A stretch of 64,000 nt of DNA from Scenedesmus sp. PABB004. Lineage: Eukaryota. This document shows, piece by piece, positions 27,401-46,250 of this stretch. Position 1 is the first letter of the stretch; each line of letters starts with the position of its first letter. The notes beneath the pieces were generated by a model. That model did no database searches. It saw only the letters and a program-made list of their open reading frames with translations, and was not told the origin of the DNA. The translations under genes and the position numbers were made by a program. Location of the stretch: contig CM026547.1 in NCBI GenBank assembly GCA_014905635.1, positions 3,782,001 to 3,846,000 of the forward strand. The letters are read 5' to 3'.

Positions 27401-29096
27401 AGCGCCGACCAGGCGGCGGCGGTCGCGGCGGCAGTCGCCTCCGCGGCGGCGGCGTTCAGCCACCAGCTGGGCAGCATGTGGTGCGAGGCTGTGTTCCCGC
27501 TGCTCGCCGCGGAGTGGGCGGCGTGCCGGGAGGCGCTGCAGCGCCCCGTGCTGCGCGCCGGCGCCGACGCGCTGCTGTCAGGCACCGCGGCGTGGCCGCT
27601 GCTGCTGGGCCTGCAGGCGCAGGCCGCCGCGGGGGAATCGGGCGGGGGCGCGCCGCCGGCCGGGCTCGAGGCGCTGAGCGTGTCGGGGCGCGCCGCGCTG
27701 GGGTGCTTCCTCGCGGTGCAGCGCGTGGTGGCGCTCACGCAGCTGCGCGAGGTGCGGCGCGGCGCGCCGGCGCCGCGCCCCCGCCCGCCGCGCGCGCGCG
27801 GGACGCCTGCTGGGGGCGGGCGCGCTGACGCGCCCGCGCCGCCGCCGCTGCCGCCGCCGCCGGCGCCACCGCCGCGCAGCTGCTGGCGAGCGGCGCCGTG
27901 CCGGCGGCGCCGCCCGTGGCGACGCTGAGCGAGGCGGAGCTCAAGCAGGTCGACATCCAGGAGGGCTTCCAGGTTGACCTCGCGCCGGGCTCGGCGCTGC
28001 CGTGCGTGGTGTCGTTCGCGCCGGGGCAGGAGCGGCGAGTCTACTTTGCTGGTGCGCGCTCGCCGCCCCGCCGCACGCGCACGTCGCCGCCTCGCGCGCC
28101 GCCGCCGCCGCGCAGCGCCGCCGCGCGGGCCGTCACGCCGCCTGCCGCCGCGCCCGCGCCCGCGCGCCTGCGCAGTCGCGGGGCTGTCGCGCAAGCAGCT
28201 GACGGCGATGCAGGCGGGCGGCGCCGACGCGGCGGAGCAGGCGCCGGGCCTGCTGCACTCGCTGCCCGTGGCGGTGCTGGCGGACCCGAGCCCGAGTCGG
28301 GCGCAGGCGGGCATCGTGCTGTCGGTGGCGCCGCTGCTCGGCGCGCGGCCGTACGCGGACGCGGCCGTGCCCAAGTGGCTGCACGTGCACGTGCGCCCCA
28401 GCGTGCGCGGGCTGACGCGCGTCATCAAGGTGCGCGCCTGGACAAGCAGCACGGTCCGAGCGCCTGCGCGCTGCGCACCCCGCCGCCGGGCTGCTGCACC
28501 GCGCGCGGCGCCCCCAGCGCGCGCCGCCGCATGCGCAGACCGCCGCGGCCAAGAAGGGCGGCCTGCTGGCGGCGATGCGCCAGCTGGCGGACGGGCACTG
28601 GGTGCTGGCGTTCTCAACCGCCGACAAGGCGGCGGGCGCGGTGGCGCTGGTGGAGCAGCACACGGCGCACCTGCGGCGGCTGTATAGCGCCGCGCTGGCG
28701 CCGCTCACGGGGCCGCAGGCGCAAGCAGAGCTCGCCGTGGAGGAGCAGCTCACGGGGGGCGAGCCGCTGCAGGAGCTGTCGGAGGACCAGCAGCAGCAGC
28801 AGCAGCCGCCGCCGCAGCAGCAGCAGCAGCAGCAGCCGCAGCAGCAGCAATTGGCAGAGGGTGAGCTCGTGCAGCAGGGCGTGCAGCAGCAGTTGGTCGA
28901 GCTACAGCTAGGGGCAGAGCAGCCACAGCCAGGGGCACCTGGGGAGCCGTGCGCGACCGACGCGACCGCAGGTGCCACAGCAGCTGCCACGGCAGCTGGT
29001 GAGCGCGCCGCTGCCAGCCGCAGTGCGGAGCCTGCGGAGAGCGCGGATCTGGGCTCACCTGCACCGGCTGGCAAGGGGTCTGAGCACGCGGGCTGA
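24441..29096 (+). CDS. CLEC16A: CLEC16A / TT9 (GFS9) FPL-domain endosomal-vacuolar trafficking protein, multi-exon
   Basis: [88 protein letters not shown]; C-terminal PKWLHVHVRPS and DGHWVLAF. Confidence 0.9.
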
Positions 29097-30708
29097 GCGC
29101 AGGCCCTAAGGGCTCGTCGGTAACCACTCATTACCGGGCGCGAGCGTTGGCCAGCCTCGGGCAGCTGCCACAAACCAGCACCGCGCCCTCAAACCAACTC
29201 CACGTGCAACACCGCCGACCGAGTGCAGGGAAGCTGCCTGTGCGGCAGCCATGCAACGCCTCCCCCCTCAAGAAAGCTGCTTGCCACGTCTCTGCGGCCG
29301 GTCAACAAAGGGCTGACCGCCAAGTCTGCACGAGACACGTTGCGTTCACCACAAGGAATCGAGCCTCGCACTGGGTGCAGTGCGGGCGGTGGGCTGCCCA
29401 CCTCGGACGTGCGTTTGAGATGCACACACGTGCGCCATCAGAACATGTCGGCGACACATCAGAACATGTCGGCAGCGGGCAGGCGGCTGTTGAGCCGCGC
29501 GTTGAGCTGGGGCGACGTGGCCTCAAACACCGGCGCACGGCCGCTGGCAGCGTGCGCGATCGCCGCGCTGGTGTGCAGCGAGGCCTCGTGCGCGTTCTGG
29601 GCGCGCTTCTCGGCGCGCGAGATGAGCATGCGGCTGTTGAGCCGCGCCGCCACCTGGGGCGACGTGGCCTCAAACGCAGGCGCGCGACCGCTGGCCGCGT
29701 GCGCGATGGCCGCGCTGGTGTCCAGCGAGGCCTCGTGCGCGTTCTGGGCGCGCTTCTCGGCGCGCGAGATCAGCATGCGGCGCTCGGCCTCCAGGGAGGG
29801 CTTGGCGTCCTCGAACGCAGCCACGCGGGCGCTGGCCGTGTCGCTGATGCGCTCGTGCGCTGCGTCGTGGGCTGCTTCGTGGGCAAACGCCGCGCGGCTG
29901 GCGCGCTTCTCGGCGCGCGAGAGGAGCATGCGCGGCTCGTTGTCGGTGGCCTCGTGCGCGGGGCCATCGCCCTCCGCGGCGGCGGCGATGCGCGCGTGGT
30001 TGAACGCCGCGGCGTCGGCGGCGGCGCTGATCGCGCTGGGCGTGGCGCGCAGGAGGAGGCGCCGCGCGTCGGCACCTGCGGGGGGACGCAGGGCGGCGGG
30101 CGGCGTGAGTGTGAGAGGCGTGCGAGCGAGGCGTGGAGGCTGACAGAGGCTGGAAGGCAAGCAGCATCAGGCGCTGCCGCGCCCGCTGGCCGCCGGGCAG
30201 CGGCGGCTCACCGGCAGCGACGCAGGCGAGCAGGAGCAGGGCCGCCAGCCGGCACGGGCTGCTGCGTGCCATGTCAGGCGCCGCGGGAGGCAGGCTGCGG
30301 AGCTGGAGAGCGGCGAGCGCTCGAGAACGGCGGTGCGAAAGAGTGGCTTCGGTCCTGAGCAGCGGGCTGTGCGTGAGGCTCGTGAGGCGTGCTGTGGGTG
30401 TCGTGAAGGCTCCGGCGAGTCCGCCTTTATCGCGCCGCACGAGCGCAGGCCCCGCAAAGCCATCATCAAACTCCCGGCCCAGCAAATCCGCTGGCCCGGA
30501 GTGCCGTGCGGCCGCGCGCCCGGGCGGGCATCAAATCCGCCCGACGCGACGTGACCTGGGTCCGGGCGGGCGTCGCCGTGGCGTGGGGTGGCGGCGGCCA
30601 GCCCGGCCGCCGCTGCGCAAGCGCGCGTGCGGCGCGGGCGGGGCTGGCAGGGGCGGGAAGGGCGCTGAAGCTGGCTGGTGTGGCCGATGGCACACGCGCG
30701 ACGTGGGC
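28927..30708 (+). repeat. Segment A of a segmental duplication (inverted copy at ~42443-44254)
   Basis: Near-identical reverse-complement match including non-coding DNA; starts inside the last CLEC16A exon. Confidence 0.93.
29459..30272 (-). CDS. Secreted repeat protein / candidate prepro-peptide, copy 1 (exons 30272-30212, 30075-29459)
   Basis: Signal peptide MARSSPCRLAALLLLACVAAG, GT-AG intron, then RRLL and three R-M-L-[LI]-SRAEKRA units. Differences I compared with copy 2 are synonymous except one K/R. Confidence 0.8.
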
Positions 30709-30781
30709 CGATGCCACACGCGCAGCCGCCAGCGCTGCTGCCAGCGCCGACGCGGGCTCGCCCGTCTGCGGCACACCCGGC

Positions 30782-30892
30782 CACAGGAGTAGCTCTAACG
30801 GATGATGATGAGCGGGGGCGGCTCCAGCACGGGGGGGGGGGGCGGCTCCAGCACGCCCCCGCTCATCATCATCCGTTAGAGCTACTCCTGTG
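30782..30892. repeat. Perfect 39-bp inverted repeat with 33-nt spacer (MITE-like or hairpin RNA)
   Basis: CACAGGAGTAGCTCTAACGGATGATGATGAGCGGGGGCG (30782-30820) is the exact reverse complement of 30854-30892. GGCGGCTCCAGCACG occurs twice (30817, 30841) around a G run. Confidence 0.9.
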
Positions 30893-31099
30893 AGCGTGGA
30901 GAACCACCCGACCACCCGCCGGCCGGACCGATGCAACCAACGCGCTCCGATCAACTGATCAACGAATCAGCAGATGTCCCCTGCGAGCCGACTGCGCTCG
31001 CACACTACAGATTCCCACAACATCATCTGTGCGAAGAGGGGGCCGGAAGCTGGGGCGCGATGTGGCCGTGCCAGGCCAAAGTCCAGAAACCAAGCAAGT

Positions 31100-33082
31100 G
31101 CGGACGGCTGCTGTGTGTGACGCCCCAGGTGCGACCGGCCGTGCGTTTGTGCAAGAAGAAGTAAGGCTGCTCACGCCAGTTGGCCAACCGTTTAGGATGT
31201 GAGACCCAGCATCCCCCTCCATCCAAGCCACGCTGCTGCCAGCGCCGCTTCCGCACCAGCTACAGTTCTTGCTTGAGCACCGGCGCCGGCGAGTCCGCTG
31301 GCGTCGGCGCCGGCGCGGGCGCCGGCGCGGGCGCGGGCTGCGCGTACGCCTCGACCACAGCGCCGGCAAACGCGACCGCGCCCAGTTTAAGGGGGTGCAG
31401 GAGCACCTGCAGCCGCGCAAACTGCTGGCAGCTGAGAACGCCATACAGCTGCGCGCCGGCGATGCCGCCGAGCAGCCCAAACTTGGCGAGCAGCAGCTGC
31501 ACCTCCCGGAGCCGCTCCGCCCGCACCTCCTCCCTGCCCAGGTGCTGGAGCATGCTGCTTGCGAGCAGCGCCTCGCCACCGGCGCCGGCGCCAGCGGCGC
31601 CCGGCGGGGGCAGGCCCACCTCGGTGAAGAGCTGGCAGAGCTTGCTCGTAATGGGCGCGTGGACGCGGCGGAACACCTTGAGCCCGGCCACAATGTCGCG
31701 CACCTGGTCGGGCGACAGCCCCAATGTGCGGCACGCGTGCGCGACGCGCTCGGCCTCCCGTGGCAGGCCGTACATGACCGTGACCACACTGTTGCGGCCG
31801 CACAATATCATCTGCCCGAGCAGGACAATCCACTGCATTGCCAGCTCATGCAGCTGCTCCAGTGGCGGCGAGCTGCCCGTCAACGGGCCCGCCGCGTCCA
31901 GCTGATGCAGCGCCACAGCCGCACGGCGCACGATCTGCGAGGCGCGCGGCGTGGGGGCGCAGGCGAGAGCTCTGCGCAGCACGCGTCGCGCGGCGGCACG
32001 CGGCGCGCCGCGGCGCGCGGCAGGCGCCACTGCTGGCTGCTCAGCGCTCTGCTTCTGTGTGCAGCCTCACCTCATCGCAGTGCTGCGTGAGCCCCTCAAC
32101 CGTCATGGTCAGCGCTTCGGGCGGCGCGGGCTGCGCACGGGGCGGAGCGCCGCGGGCGCCGCTCGGGGTCGACGGCCGCTTGCGCCCGTGTGGCCCCCGC
32201 TGCCTGCTCTGCCACACCTGTGACAGTATGTGCCGCACCAAGCGCAGGGGGTCGTGTGGCGGCGCCATGCGCTCATGTGCCGTTGCTGCCGCCTCGCTCC
32301 CGAGCTCGGACGCGTTGTCGCCGTCGCTGCTGCTGCGTTCCGACGCCGTCGGCTGGCAAGCCGCCCCTGCTCGCGGGCCGCCACTGAGCGAGGCGGCGCG
32401 CAGCTGCTCCAGCAGCAGCAGCTCCTCGCCGTCCGCGCCCAGCTCGGAGGCCGCAAGCAGCAGCGGCCCGGACGCGTCGCCGCTCTCGGCGGCCGCGGCC
32501 AGCTGCTGGCCCTCCAGATGCTGCCTGATCCAGCCCATGGTGTCAACGTACGCCTGCAGGAGGTCATGCTGCGGCAGGGTGCGGCGACGGCGGCGCAGCG
32601 GCGGCGGTCGGCTGCTGCTGCTGCCGCTCCGCCAGGCGTTGCGTGCGGGAGGGCCCGGATCAGCCACTGCCGCTGCGGCAGAGCGCGGCCCGCATAACCG
32701 CCGTCCTCACGGCCCGTGCGACGGGCCCTTCCAGGCAGCCACGGGGCGGCGCGGCCCACCTCAGGCGCGATGGCGTCGCGCTCCTCCGCGAGCCGACGCA
32801 GCTGCGCCTCCCGCTTCTTGATCTGCTTCAGCAGCCGTGCAACGTGGCCGCGATGCACGGCAGAGCGGCTCTTGTTTTTCAGCATCGCTGCTGCCGCAGG
32901 CCGCCGGCCGCCGCTGTCACGCCGGCCGGGCCATGGCGGCGGTGCCTGCGCCCAATCGCGGGCTCCTGGCGGGCGGCTCTGGCACCAGGCAGGCCGGGGC
33001 TGCCGGCCCAGGGGCTGCGGCGGCGGGCTGCGCGCCACGCCTGCGCCCTGCACCCTGACCGCGCGCCTGCCGCCGCTGCCGC
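31100..33082 (+). repeat. Segment B of a segmental duplication (inverted copy at ~44293-46250)
   Basis: Reverse-complement match, high in exons and introns, decaying in the 3' UTR. Confidence 0.92.
31260..32885 (-). CDS. bZIP-like protein with DOG1/TGA-like C-terminal domain, copy 1 (exons 32885-32760, 32568-32071, 31934-31260)
   Basis: Basic region MLKNKSRSAVHR followed by a heptad coiled coil (LLKQIKKREAQLRRLAEERDAIAPE|HDLL); in-phase GT-AG introns. An alternative upstream in-frame ATG lies at 33203. The domain name is an inference. Confidence 0.65.
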
Positions 33083-42191: not shown

Positions 42192-42911
42192 GGGGCGGCG
42201 GGGCGGCTGCGGGCGCTGCGGGGCGTCGGGTGACGCGTGCCGGCGGTGGTGGTTTTTCATTCGCGTGGTTGACTGCGCTGCGTCTGGCCGCGTGCTGTTG
42301 TGCGCCGTCGCTGGGCTGGTCGGGGGTCCATCCTGGGACGATCTGGCAATCATCGAGCACACAAAGTCGGCGGCGTCGATCCCGCAGCCAGGCCTCAGGC
42401 CCGAGGCCTGGCGCGCGCCGCGGCTTGCGGTGGCTGCCGCGCGCCCACGTGCCCTCGCGCGCGTGTGCCATCGGTCACGCCAGCCAGCTTCAGCGCCCTT
42501 CCCGCCCCTGCCAGCCCCGCCCGCGCCGCACGCGCGCGCTGCCTGCGCAGCGGCGGCCGGGCTGGCCGCCGCCACCCCACGCCACGGCGACGCCCGGCAA
42601 CGCCCGCCCGGACCCAGGTTACGTCGCGTCATTAGGATTTGATGCCCGCCCGGGCGCGCCGGCCGCACGGCACACTCCGGTGCAGCGGATTTGCTGGGCC
42701 GGGAGTGCGGGAGTTTGATGATGGCTTTGCGGGGCCTGCGCTCGTGCGGCGCGATAAAGGCGGACTCGCCGGAGCCTTCACGACACCCACAGCACGCCTC
42801 ACGAGCCTCACGCACAGCCCGCTGCTCAGGACCGAAGCCACTCTTTCGCACCGCCGTTCTCGAGCGCTCGCCGCTCTCCAGCTCCGCAGCCTGCCTCCCG
42901 CGGCGCCTGAC

Positions 42912-43725
42912 ATGGCACGCAGCAGCCCGTGCCGGCTGGCGGCCCTGCTCCTGCTCGCCTGCGTCGCTGCCGGTGAGCCGCCGCTGCCCGGCGGCCAGCG
43001 GGCGCGGCAGCGCCTGATGCTGCTTGCCTTCCAGCCTCTGTCAGCCTCCACGCCTCGCTCGCACGCCTCTCACACTCACGCCGCCCGCCGCCCTGCGTCC
43101 CCCCGCAGGTGCCGACGCGCGGCGCCTCCTCCTGCGCGCCACGCCCAGCGCGATCAGCGCCGCCGCCGACGCCGCGGCGTTCAACCACGCGCGCATCGCC
43201 GCCGCCGCGGAGGGCGATGGCCCCGCGCACGAGGCCACCGACAACGAGCCGCGCATGCTCCTCTCGCGCGCCGAGAAGCGCGCCAGCCGCGCGGCGTTTG
43301 CCCACGAAGCAGCCCACGACGCAGCGCACGAGCGCATCAGCGACACGGCCAGCGCCCGCGTGGCTGCGTTCGAGGACGCCAGGCCCTCCCTGGAGGCCGA
43401 GCGCCGCATGCTGATTTCGCGCGCCGAGAAGCGCGCCCAGAACGCGCACGAGGCCTCGCTGGACACCAGCGCGGCCATCGCGCACGCGGCCAGCGGTCGC
43501 GCGCCTGCGTTTGAGGCCACGTCGCCCCAGGTGGCGGCGCGGCTCAACAGCCGCATGCTGATCTCGCGCGCCGAGAAGCGCGCCCAGAACGCGCACGAGG
43601 CCTCGCTGCACACCAGCGCGGCCATCGCCCACGCGGCCAGCGGTCGCGCGCCGGTGTTTGAGGCCACGTCGCCCCAGCTCAACGCGCGGCTCAACAGCCG
43701 CCTGCCCGCTGCCGACATGTTCTGA
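42912..43725 (+). CDS. Secreted repeat protein / candidate prepro-peptide, copy 2 (exons 42912-42972, 43109-43725)
   Basis: Same structure as copy 1; 147-bp (49-aa) internal tandem repeat starting at 43405 and 43552. Confidence 0.8.
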
Positions 43726-44087
43726 TGTGTCGCCGACATGTTCTGATGGCGCACGTGTGTGCATCTCAAACGCACGTCCGAGGTGGGCAGGCCACCGCCC
43801 GCACTGCACCCAGTGCGAGGCTCGATTCCTTGTGGTGAACGCTACGTGTCTCGTGCAGACTTGGCGGTCAGCCCTTTGTTGACCGGCCGCAGAGATGTGG
43901 CAAGCAGCTTTCTTGAGGGGGAGGCTTTGCATGGCTGCCGCACAGGCAGCTTCCCTGCACTCGGTCGGCGGTGTCGTGCACGTGGAGTTGGTTTGAGGCG
44001 CGGTGCTGGTTTGTGGCAGCTGCCCGAGGCTGGCCAACGCTCGCGCCCGGTAATGAGTGGTTACCGACGAGCCCTGAGGGCCTGCGC

Positions 44088-44254
44088 TCAGCCCGTGTGC
44101 GCAGACCCCTTGCCAGCCGGTGCAGGTGAGCCCAGATCCGCGCTCTCCGCAGGCTCCGCACTGCGGCTGGCAGCGGCGCGCTCACCAGCCGTGGCAGCTG
44201 CTGTGGCACCTGCGGTCGCGTCGGTCGCGCACGGCTCCCCAGCTGCCCCTGGCT
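44088..44254 (-). pseudogene. Captured 3' fragment of the CLEC16A last exon
   Basis: Translates [31 protein letters not shown], matching the C-terminus at 28927-29096, with no upstream exons. Confidence 0.75.
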
Positions 44255-44292
44255 CAACGCAGCAACCCTCGTCAGCCTCGGCGGCAGCGGCA

Positions 44293-46250
44293 GCGGCAGC
44301 GGCGGGCAGGCGCGCGGTCAGCGGTGCAGGGCGCAGGCGTGGCGCGCAGCCCGCCGCCGCAGCCCCTGGGCCGGCAGCCCCGGCCTGCCCGGTGCCAGAG
44401 CCGCCCGCCAGGAGCCCGCGATTGGGCGCAGGCACCGCCGCCATGGCCCGGCCGGCGTGACAGCGGCGGCCGGCGGCCTGCGGCAGCAGCGATGCTGAAA
44501 AACAAGAGCCGCTCTGCCGTGCATCGCGGCCACGCTGCACGGCTGCTGAAGCAGATCAAGAAGCGGGAGGCGCAGCTGCGTCGGCTCGCGGAGGAGCGCG
44601 ACGCCATCGCGCCTGAGGTGGGCCGCGCCGCCCCGTGGCTGCCTGGAAGGGCCCGTCGCACGGGCCGTGAGGACGGCGGTTATGCGGGCCGCGCTCTGCC
44701 GCAGCGGCAGTGGCTGATCCGGGCCCTCCCGCACGCAACGCCTGGCGGAGCGGCAGCAGCAGCAGCCGACCGCCGCCGCTGCGCCGCCGTCGCCGCACCC
44801 TGCCGCAGCATGACCTCCTGCAGGCGTACGTTAACACCATGGGCTGGATCAGGCAGCATCTGGAGGGCCAGCAGCTGGCCGCGGCCGCCGAGAGCGGCGA
44901 CGCGTCCGGGCCGCTGCAGCTTGCGGCCTCAGAGCTGGGCGCGGACGGCGAGGAGCTGCTGCTGCTGGAGCAGCTGCGCGCCGCCTCGCTCAGTTGCGGC
45001 CCGCGAGCAGGGGCGGCTTGCCAGCCGACGGCGCCTGAACACAGCAGCAGCGACGGCGACAACGCGTCCGAGCTCGGGCACGCGGCGGCCGCAGCGGCAT
45101 ATGAGCGCATGGCGCCGCCGCACGACCCCCTGCGCTTGGCGCGGCACATACTGTCACAGGTGCGGCAGAGCAGGCAGCGGGGGCCACACGGGCGCAAGCG
45201 GCCGTCGACCCCGAGCGGCGCCCGCGGCGCTCCGCCCCGTGCGCAGCCCGCGCCGCCCGAAGCGCTGACCATGACGGTTGAGGGGCTCAAGCAGCGCCAC
45301 GATGAGGTGAGGCCGCACACAGACAGAAGCAGAGCGCTGAGCAGCCAGCTGCGGCGCCTGCCGCGCGCCGCCGCGCGTCGCGTGCCGCCGCGCGACCGCG
45401 CGACGCGTGCTGCGCAGAGCTCTCGCCTGCGCCCCCACGCCGCGCGCCTCGCAGATCGTGCGCCGTGCGGCTGTGGCGCTGCATCAGCTGGACGCGGCGG
45501 GCCCGTTGACGGGCAGCTCGCCGCCACTGGAGCAGCTGCATGAGCTGGCAATGCAGTGGATTGTCCTGCTCGGGCAGATGATATTGTGCGGCCGCAACAA
45601 TGTGGTCCTGGCCAGGCATGGTCAGCACGACGCTGAGCGCGTCGCGCACGCGTGCCGCGCCGTGGGGCTGTCGCCCGACCAGGTGCGCGACATTGTGGCC
45701 GGGCTCAAGGTGTTCCGCCGCGTCCACGCGCCCATCACGAGCAAGCTCTGCCAGCTCTTCACCGAGGTGGGCCTGCCCCCGCCGGGCGCCGCCGGCGCTG
45801 GCGCCGGCGCCGGCGGCGAGGCGCTGCTGGCGAGCAGCATGCTCCAGCACCTGGGCAGGGAGGAGGTGCGGGCGGAGCGGCTCCGCGAGGTGCAGCTGCT
45901 GCTCGCCAAGTTTGGGCTGCTCGGCGGCATCGCCGGCGCGCAGCTGTTTGGCGTGCTCAGCTGCCACCAGTTTGCGCGGCTGCAGGTGCTCCTGCACCCC
46001 CACACAGTGAGCGCGGTCGCGTTTGCCGGCGCCGTGGTCGAGGCGTACGCGCAGCCCGCGCCCGCGCCGGTGCTCAAGCAAGAACCATAGCTGGTGCGCC
46101 GGCGCCGCTCACAGTGGCGTGGCGGAGCTGGACGAACGGGATTGCAGATGTCGCTCACATCCTGAACGGCCGGTCAACTGGCGCCTCACTTCTTGCACAA
46201 ACGCGCGCCTCGGCCGTGGCACCTGGCTCACACGCGGCAGCCTTCCGCGT
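44293..46250 (-). repeat. Inverted copy of segment B (31100-33082)
   Basis: Reverse-complement identity across exons, introns and part of the 3' UTR. Confidence 0.92.
44492..46090 (+). CDS. bZIP-like protein with DOG1/TGA-like C-terminal domain, copy 2 (exons 44492-44617, 44809-45306, 45455-46090)
   Basis: Intact frame and conserved splice sites relative to copy 1. Confidence 0.65.

Follow-up and report, generated by a model that had tools for sequence, protein, structure and literature searches.

A duplicated Scenedesmus gene for a predicted secretory-pathway tandem-repeat protein of a narrow algal family: proposed intact helical array or possible polyprotein

We analysed a gene on the minus strand at 30272..29459 of a 64,000-nucleotide stretch of DNA (the window in what follows, to which all coordinates refer) from contig CM026547.1 of the green alga Scenedesmus sp. 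PABB004 (Chlorophyceae; assembly GCA_014905635.1, positions 3,782,001 to 3,846,000), for which an earlier note made from the DNA letters had proposed an algal, multi-copy secreted peptide precursor. From the sequence comparisons described below we regard it as established that this is a real, duplicated and selectively maintained gene for a predicted secretory-pathway tandem-repeat protein, which belongs to a new and narrow family. As for the fate of the product, we favour, at a rough probability of 0.45, a protein that would stay largely intact in the secretory pathway as an extended, non-globular array of alanine-rich helices; a polyprotein that is cut at the head of each repeat remains a serious alternative.

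The gene comprises two exons with a coding sequence of 678 nucleotides (nt) and a product of 225 residues, as obtained by reading the window and by scripted splicing, and the ATG at 30272 is the first in-frame ATG downstream of a stop. Its parts are as follows:

30212..30272, minus strand: exon 1, 61 nt, with the ATG at 30272; residues 1–20 and the first base of Gly21; signal-peptide-like N-terminus
30076..30211, minus strand: intron, 136 nt, GT..AG (GTGAGC...CCGCAG), phase 1
29459..30075, minus strand: exon 2, 617 nt including the TGA at 29461..29459; encodes the remainder of the signal peptide and the four repeat units
29933..30064, minus strand: unit 1, 44 residues; head RRLL at residue 25, immediately following the predicted signal-peptidase site
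29780..29932, minus strand: unit 2, 51 residues; head RMLL at residue 69, then SRAEKRA; divergent, without the G...ATSP turn
29633..29779, minus strand: unit 3, 49 residues; head RMLI at residue 120, then SRAEKRA
29462..29632, minus strand: unit 4 (29486..29632, 49 residues; head RMLI at residue 169, then SRAEKRA) and an 8-residue tail, RLPAADMF

The repeat layout given in the earlier note (RRLL, RMLL and twice RMLI, with SRAEKRA, heading units of 44–51 residues, the last two being 49-residue near-duplicates) proved accurate to the residue: SRAEKRA stands at residues 73, 124 and 173 with KR at 77, 128 and 177, units 3 and 4 share 92% protein identity (13 of 147 nt differ), and Tandem Repeats Finder reports this pair with a period of 147, 2.1 copies, 91% matches and a score of 508. 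We judge the architecture to be far beyond chance, since a paralogue and five further proteins share it. The signal peptide likewise held up on inspection of the sequence, the means by which it was judged both here and in the relatives: the N-terminus MARSSPCR is followed by a 14-residue hydrophobic run from residue 9 and then by A-D-A before R25. The product contains 29.3% Ala, 10.7% Arg, 9.3% Ser, 6.7% Glu and 4.4% each of His and Pro.

The length of an open reading frame is no evidence of coding in this window, as its six frames together contain 156 stretches of 250 codons or more without a stop; GC content is 72–83% throughout (2-kb bins). The evidence that the gene is real comes instead from four independent lines, the first of which is comparison with an inverted paralogue that lies in the same window as part of a longer duplication:

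42912..43725, plus strand: inverted paralogue (copy B), with exon 1 at 42912..42972, the intron at 42973..43108 and exon 2 at 43109..43725
28927..30708, no strand assigned: duplicated segment, comprising the gene and its flanks (5', ~436 nt; 3', ~532 nt); partner at 44254..42451, 96.7% identity

The coding sequences of the two copies differ at eight sites, seven of them synonymous (binomial p 5e-4) and the last a conservative change, K112R, which gives a ratio of non-synonymous to synonymous substitution rates (dN/dS) of 0.049; read in the other two frames, dN lies above dS and the same differences are mostly non-synonymous. The flanks diverge by 4–8%. Over the ~470 nt from the ATG (29803–30272 versus 42912–43381), with exon 1 and the whole intron included, the copies are identical, which suggests that the 5' half of the gene underwent gene conversion recently, and the paralogue selection test therefore rests on the last ~344 nt. 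Comparison of units 3 and 4 with each other gives a dN/dS of 0.23, and GC content at the first, second and third codon positions of the gene frame is 0.735, 0.597 and 0.925 (exon 2).

Environmental DNA supplies the fourth line. Freshwater and lake metagenome contigs that are 95–100% identical to the gene cover parts of 29250–30420, from which it follows that this alga or a close relative occurs in such waters. One of them, of 438 nt, like a second contig of that study, carries 10 substitutions and four 2-nt insertions or deletions within the proposed intron, and this supports the intron assignment because a coding stretch would not tolerate the latter; in exon 1 the same variant shows just two third-position changes (synonymous by codon reading) and an insertion of 3 nt. 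A further contig differs twice within a single codon of the C-terminal tail (Pro to Ala, again by codon reading) and at five listed sites in the 3' flank. Public sequencing runs that match parts of the stretch number seven, all of them DNA metagenomes and none an RNA run.

Relatives of the protein are few. An exhaustive phmmer search of 1.84 billion representative sequences at E ≤0.001 returned exactly two matches, P0003 (E 1.9e-12) and P0004 (E 3.6e-5); profile searches, which the earlier note had recommended, did bring out a tiny family (P0003–P0007) by adding P0005 and P0006 and, with a one-unit profile run over longer proteins, P0007. The first four of these (P0003–P0006) are singleton 'hypothetical proteins' of JGI (Joint Genome Institute) metagenomes. 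P0007 is 'hypothetical protein HT031_000736' of Scenedesmus sp. PABB004 (1479 residues, encoded on a 4.85-Mb contig), which contains the repeats of copy B with R112, so that the gene is indeed algal as had been supposed. We therefore describe a small orphan family that, on sequence grounds, is made up of the window protein, its paralogue and four metagenome proteins.

Beyond this family the searches returned nothing of use. A word-indexed protein search with the single window sequence gave no match, Pfam gave sub-threshold noise only (E up to 10 for the window protein and up to 1 for all six family members), the best match among PDB sequences had an E of 1.2, ESM Atlas gave no usable match for the family, Foldseek found 0 matches in the PDB, and a wide fold search with VIA-align yielded nothing more specific than coiled-coil or single-helix chains (Z up to 7.1). 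The strings SRAEKRA, KMDQRE and SDATAPE and the locus tag are absent from the searchable literature, the main text of a Scenedesmus cell-wall proteomics paper (PMC11839794) has no HT031 entry, and scans of metagenome and viral contigs did not locate the loci of the metagenome relatives. No known family, fold or publication matches the protein, in line with the earlier note, whose author had not recognised the family.

The relatives have 4 to 6 units of 49–57 residues. In four family proteins a hydrophobic leader is followed by GADA or VRA immediately before R, and the leaders of P0003, P0005 and P0004 are comparable to that of the window protein; the tails of these same three relatives contain a further unit head ahead of a poly-Q run. 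In a tree of the units, first units cluster across proteins and later units by lineage (support 82–97, with the bootstrap not fully settled), and the arrays therefore grew independently in the different lineages. Throughout the family Trp is missing and Cys essentially absent, with 20–29% Ala, 2–6% Gly, a grand average of hydropathy (GRAVY) of −0.25 to −0.38 and a low mean hydrophobic moment (0.16–0.20). Other properties are not shared: the isoelectric point (pI) is 9.9 in the window protein versus 5.3 in the relatives, and His makes up 5.0% versus 0.8–1.5%, for which reason the His-based metal binder that had been among the suggested roles was dropped.

Alignment of the units yields, for a unit of 49–54 residues, the family pattern R-x-L...R10...A14..A17...T21...I25..A28A29.G31....V.[DE]AT[AS]P. 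The residues L3, A14 and I25, 11 residues apart, are invariant in all 22 regular units; A17, A28, A29, G31, T39 and P41 are present in 19–21 of the 22, and R1 in 21 of 22 if the register of the first unit is counted. Conservation thus spans unit positions 1–41 and only the last ~10 positions are variable. Each unit has one conserved T-[AS]-P, which could be a single hydroxyproline site.

The heads of the units are the most regular feature. R-x-[LIVM]-x stands, in at least one register, at the head of all 24 units of five family proteins; in total 36 occurrences were counted, with 32 at heads, 2 as offset registers of first heads, 2 in the degenerate head of the C-terminal tail and 0 in unit bodies, whilst shuffled sequences would yield 3–5 per protein at random places. 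In this respect the RxLL-type heads of the earlier note fit the site-1-protease-type site that it had read in them. The first head is a different matter: in all proteins the first RxLL lies 0–4 residues past the predicted signal-peptidase site and therefore delimits no peptide there. The dibasic KR, which had been taken for a Kex2/furin-type site, fared worse: KR or RR is found in three of four units of the window protein; among the relatives, three of four first units have it and 0 of 14 later regular units, where QR (11), QL (2) or QH (1) stands in its place.

We also examined AlphaFold2 models of the window protein, for which the alignment held 6 sequences, and of P0005. The former is predicted to form helices at residues 2–35, 47–129 and 141–178, with a mean predicted local distance difference test score (pLDDT) of 66 that reaches 79–93 over residues 50–120, and a predicted template modelling score (pTM) of 0.25; the latter is predicted to form one ~43-residue helix per unit, parted by a G...SDATAP turn, at a pLDDT of 43. 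Across the models pTM is 0.17–0.25, and the ESM Atlas model of P0005 has a pLDDT of 0.38. All eight internal unit heads of the two AlphaFold2 models lie inside helices, six of them at least 9 residues in. On a helical wheel L3, R10, A14, A17, T21, I25 and A28 fall at 0, 340, 20, 320, 0, 40 and 340 degrees and hence within ±40 degrees on one face. Taken together, the near-absence of Cys, the lack of Trp, the negative GRAVY values and the low pTM give no indication of a globular core.

These observations are best accommodated, in our view, by a protein that remains largely intact. The signal peptide would be removed at [AV]-x-A just ahead of the first R, and each unit would then form one long helix closed by the conserved G...T-[AS]-P turn; the conserved helix face may provide a packing or ligand-binding stripe that is repeated 4–6 times and could allow the protein, at the cell surface or wall, to self-associate or to bind in a multivalent manner. 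In this arrangement the 'RxL' head would owe its invariant L to the stripe rather than to a protease site. We favour this arrangement because conservation covers the whole unit and is helix-phased, because the candidate cleavage motif is predicted to lie mid-helix, because neither KR nor His nor charge is conserved, and because the first RxLL directly follows the signal-peptidase site.

Several points count against it. Its support is drawn from sequence, and the structure models are of low confidence and derive from only 6 sequences. Although the periodicity of conservation is strongest at 100 degrees, 552 of 5000 shuffles reach the same index, so that it is not significant. R1, at 160 degrees, is conserved on the face opposite to the stripe and is left unexplained by an intact array. 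Furthermore, R-x-[LIVM]-x is confined to unit heads and pseudo-heads, with none in unit interiors, an extra head precedes the poly-Q tail in P0003, P0005 and P0004, and the array begins exactly at the signal-peptidase site in all lineages: together with the off-face R1, this is what a cleaved polyprotein would be expected to look like.

Such a polyprotein, which we consider doubtful yet serious, would be cut at each R-x-L-[LI] or R-R-M-L head by a Golgi subtilase of the site-1-protease (S1P) type or by another endoprotease, in the window protein possibly with subsequent trimming at KR, and would yield four Cys-free helical peptides of ~45–50 residues that could act as signals or in defence. 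In addition to the four features just listed, it can draw on the presence of R at P4 and of L, I, V or M at P2 in every one of the 24 heads, in at least one register, and on unit numbers that vary from 4 to 6 in arrays expanded separately per lineage. Two features of an S1P substrate are present, namely an endoplasmic reticulum signal peptide (by inspection) and an R-x-x-L or R-x-L-x tetrapeptide (all 24 heads).

There is precedent for enzymes of this kind. The pro-forms of RALF23 and of type-I pectin methylesterases are plant substrates of S1P/SBT6.1. This protease also cuts CLEL6/GLV at RRLR and RRAL in the cis-Golgi (PMC7162652), and SKI-1-like subtilases are reported throughout the Archaeplastida (PMC6713707); among the genes of the 64-kb window, no S1P-type subtilase was found. 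The likeness to the plant substrates extends to the secretory route and to the loose tetrapeptide consensus, which all 24 heads fit; sequence kinship is absent, and while theirs is a single site in a pro-region ahead of one mature domain, the candidate site here sits in every copy of a helical repeat. The characterised peptide precursor among green algae is the secreted preproGATI of Chlamydomonas (Cre03.g204500), which is processed by the subtilisin-like VLE1 at a furin-like site (PMC9351486). Both are green-algal secretory proteins, precursor status being a candidate property in our case, but proGATI is a multidomain glycoprotein of ~250 kDa that has Pro-rich linkers and gives rise to an amidated C-terminal product, whereas the window protein is a pure tandem repeat of 225 residues without an amidation signal and without similarity to it.

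Among polyproteins proper, the units of nematode allergens are ~130 residues long, form a lipid-binding bundle and are cut at dibasic sites. In the ABA-1 type, post-translational cleavage turns them into numerous copies of a small protein (PMC3079579). Our protein shares with them tandemly repeated units, predicted to be helix-rich and secreted, but these are of ~50 residues, have no predicted compact fold and match nothing in Pfam or among PDB sequences. Repeat peptide precursors processed by Kex2 in fungi are of the yeast alpha-factor type. As in these, a signal peptide is followed by repeats and three units of the window protein carry KR, but in the relatives a dibasic at every boundary is wanting, units are four times longer than such peptides, and a short conserved peptide with variable spacers is not what the alignment contains. 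The plant ST/DUF2775 proteins resemble ours in combining a signal peptide with tandem repeats, a narrow taxonomic range and no assigned function, although their repeats are unrelated to ours in sequence and length and Pfam gives no match here. The definition of a Kex2-type precursor does not fit the protein. At most it would function in the manner of an S1P substrate or of a nematode-type polyprotein, and it is probably a member of neither family; it is probably best described as a lineage-restricted secreted tandem-repeat protein or possible polyprotein.

Several findings weigh against cleavage. The head motif is low in information and is inherited with the repeat, so that the 24 heads are not 24 independent events, and 7 units, when read as RxLx, have an acidic residue at P1 (RMLE, RMLD). 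KR is missing from all 14 later units of the relatives, conservation is not limited to a short peptide core, and the low-confidence models would place the site within helices. A cut after the first RRLL would free only a stub of 4–8 residues. There is neither a Gly-basic amidation signal nor Cys. The flip in charge between lineages (pI 9.9 versus 5.3) and the low hydrophobic moment speak against a cationic antimicrobial role for the released peptides, and for the same two reasons the idea of a cationic antimicrobial peptide was dropped.

Next to the intact helical array and the polyprotein, we considered it improbable that the protein is a stress-protective hydrophilin: a mostly disordered protein, located in the secretory pathway or cell wall and resembling late embryogenesis abundant (LEA) group 3, whose units would fold into helices of 11-residue periodicity on drying or at surfaces and shield membranes or wall polymers. 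The hydrophilic composition without Cys or Trp and with 20–29% Ala, the tandem repeats, the low-confidence fold predictions and the invariant positions 11 residues apart are all in keeping with this. However, no LEA family, LEA_4 included, is among the Pfam matches at the E values given above, although a known LEA-type repeat family was an outcome that the earlier note had allowed for; moreover, the unit is ~50 residues rather than an 11-mer array, Gly is low (2–6%), and nothing ties the gene to stress.

Very unlikely, in turn, is that there is no separate gene and that the repeat block is an internal exon of a larger protein. The 1479-residue P0007 is the source of this idea, as the entire repeat region of copy B lies within it, with a coiled-coil protein attached on the upstream side and a further gene on the downstream side. 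Yet the P0007 model omits the ATG and first residues of copy B and splices out its stop codon; the 5' neighbours of the two copies differ, what they share being the gene with its ~436 nt of 5' and ~532 nt of 3' flank; and P0003, P0004 and P0005 are short open reading frames with their own hydrophobic leader. P0007 looks like a chimeric gene prediction that fuses three neighbouring genes.

We give the least credence to an organellar linker, in which the repeats, with a helix every ~50 residues, would condense Rubisco in the pyrenoid in the manner of EPYC1 or CsLinker. Like these proteins, ours is algal and lineage-specific, with ~4–6 repeats that would each contain a helix, and it resembles the FLIPPer criteria (largely disordered, with repeating structured elements at a spacing of 20–120 residues; PMC11570498) in having four repeats with a structured element ~50 residues apart; the window protein is also basic (pI 9.9). 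EPYC1 and CsLinker are, however, basic proteins of the stroma whose short helices sit in disordered spacers, whereas here the hydrophobic run of 14 residues starts after only 8, as in a signal peptide and not as in a transit peptide, the relatives have an acidic pI (5.3), the family lacks Trp, and the predicted helices fill most of the unit instead of forming short stickers in a disordered chain. Three further ideas were discarded: a PEXEL/RxLR-like host-targeting motif (3 of 24 heads read R-x-L-x-[EDQ], by eye), a type I antifreeze-like helix (no 11-residue Thr periodicity, by eye) and an arabinogalactan protein or hydroxyproline-rich glycoprotein (Pro 4.4%, no Pro-rich backbone with clustered [AST]-P).

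The immediate significance of the gene is modest, because the evidence comes from sequence and the family is small and lineage-restricted. Nonetheless, secreted peptides and matrix proteins of chlorophytes are almost unknown outside Chlamydomonas and Volvox, and this gene is currently hidden in a chimeric 'hypothetical protein' model. Should the protein stay intact, it would represent a new extracellular helical-repeat module of Scenedesmaceae-like freshwater algae. Should the repeats be released as peptides, the locus would allow site-1-protease-type processing of pro-peptides to be tested directly in a green alga: a polyprotein that releases 4–6 copies of a ~50-residue peptide would give the green algae their first multi-copy precursor of secreted peptides and would show that S1P-type processing of pro-peptides predates land plants.

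With regard to the surroundings of the gene, Pfam supports a set of split eukaryotic genes as neighbours in the window, encoding PHD, WW, protein kinase, Nup85, lipin, DEAD-box helicase and MOZART1 proteins or domains, and one further neighbour has a weak golgin-like Pfam match. The usual poly(A) signal of chlorophytes is TGTAA; it was not found within 660 nt downstream of the stop in either copy (28800–29458; 43726–44400). At 29436–29473, 17 nt that span the last codons and the stop recur in identical form at a distance of 21 nt, just beyond the stop, in both gene copies. A second duplicated inverted pair, 31319–33082 with 46073–44293 (~96% identity), adjoins the pair that contains the gene. 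The order of the two duplicated segments is permuted between their two locations (28927–33082 and 42451–46073), and they lie 610 nt apart in one copy and 38 nt apart in the other, which reflects either a rearranged duplication or an assembly issue. Within the 610-nt unique piece between them, an imperfect palindrome of 113 nt, 83% self-complementary, is found at 30782–30892.

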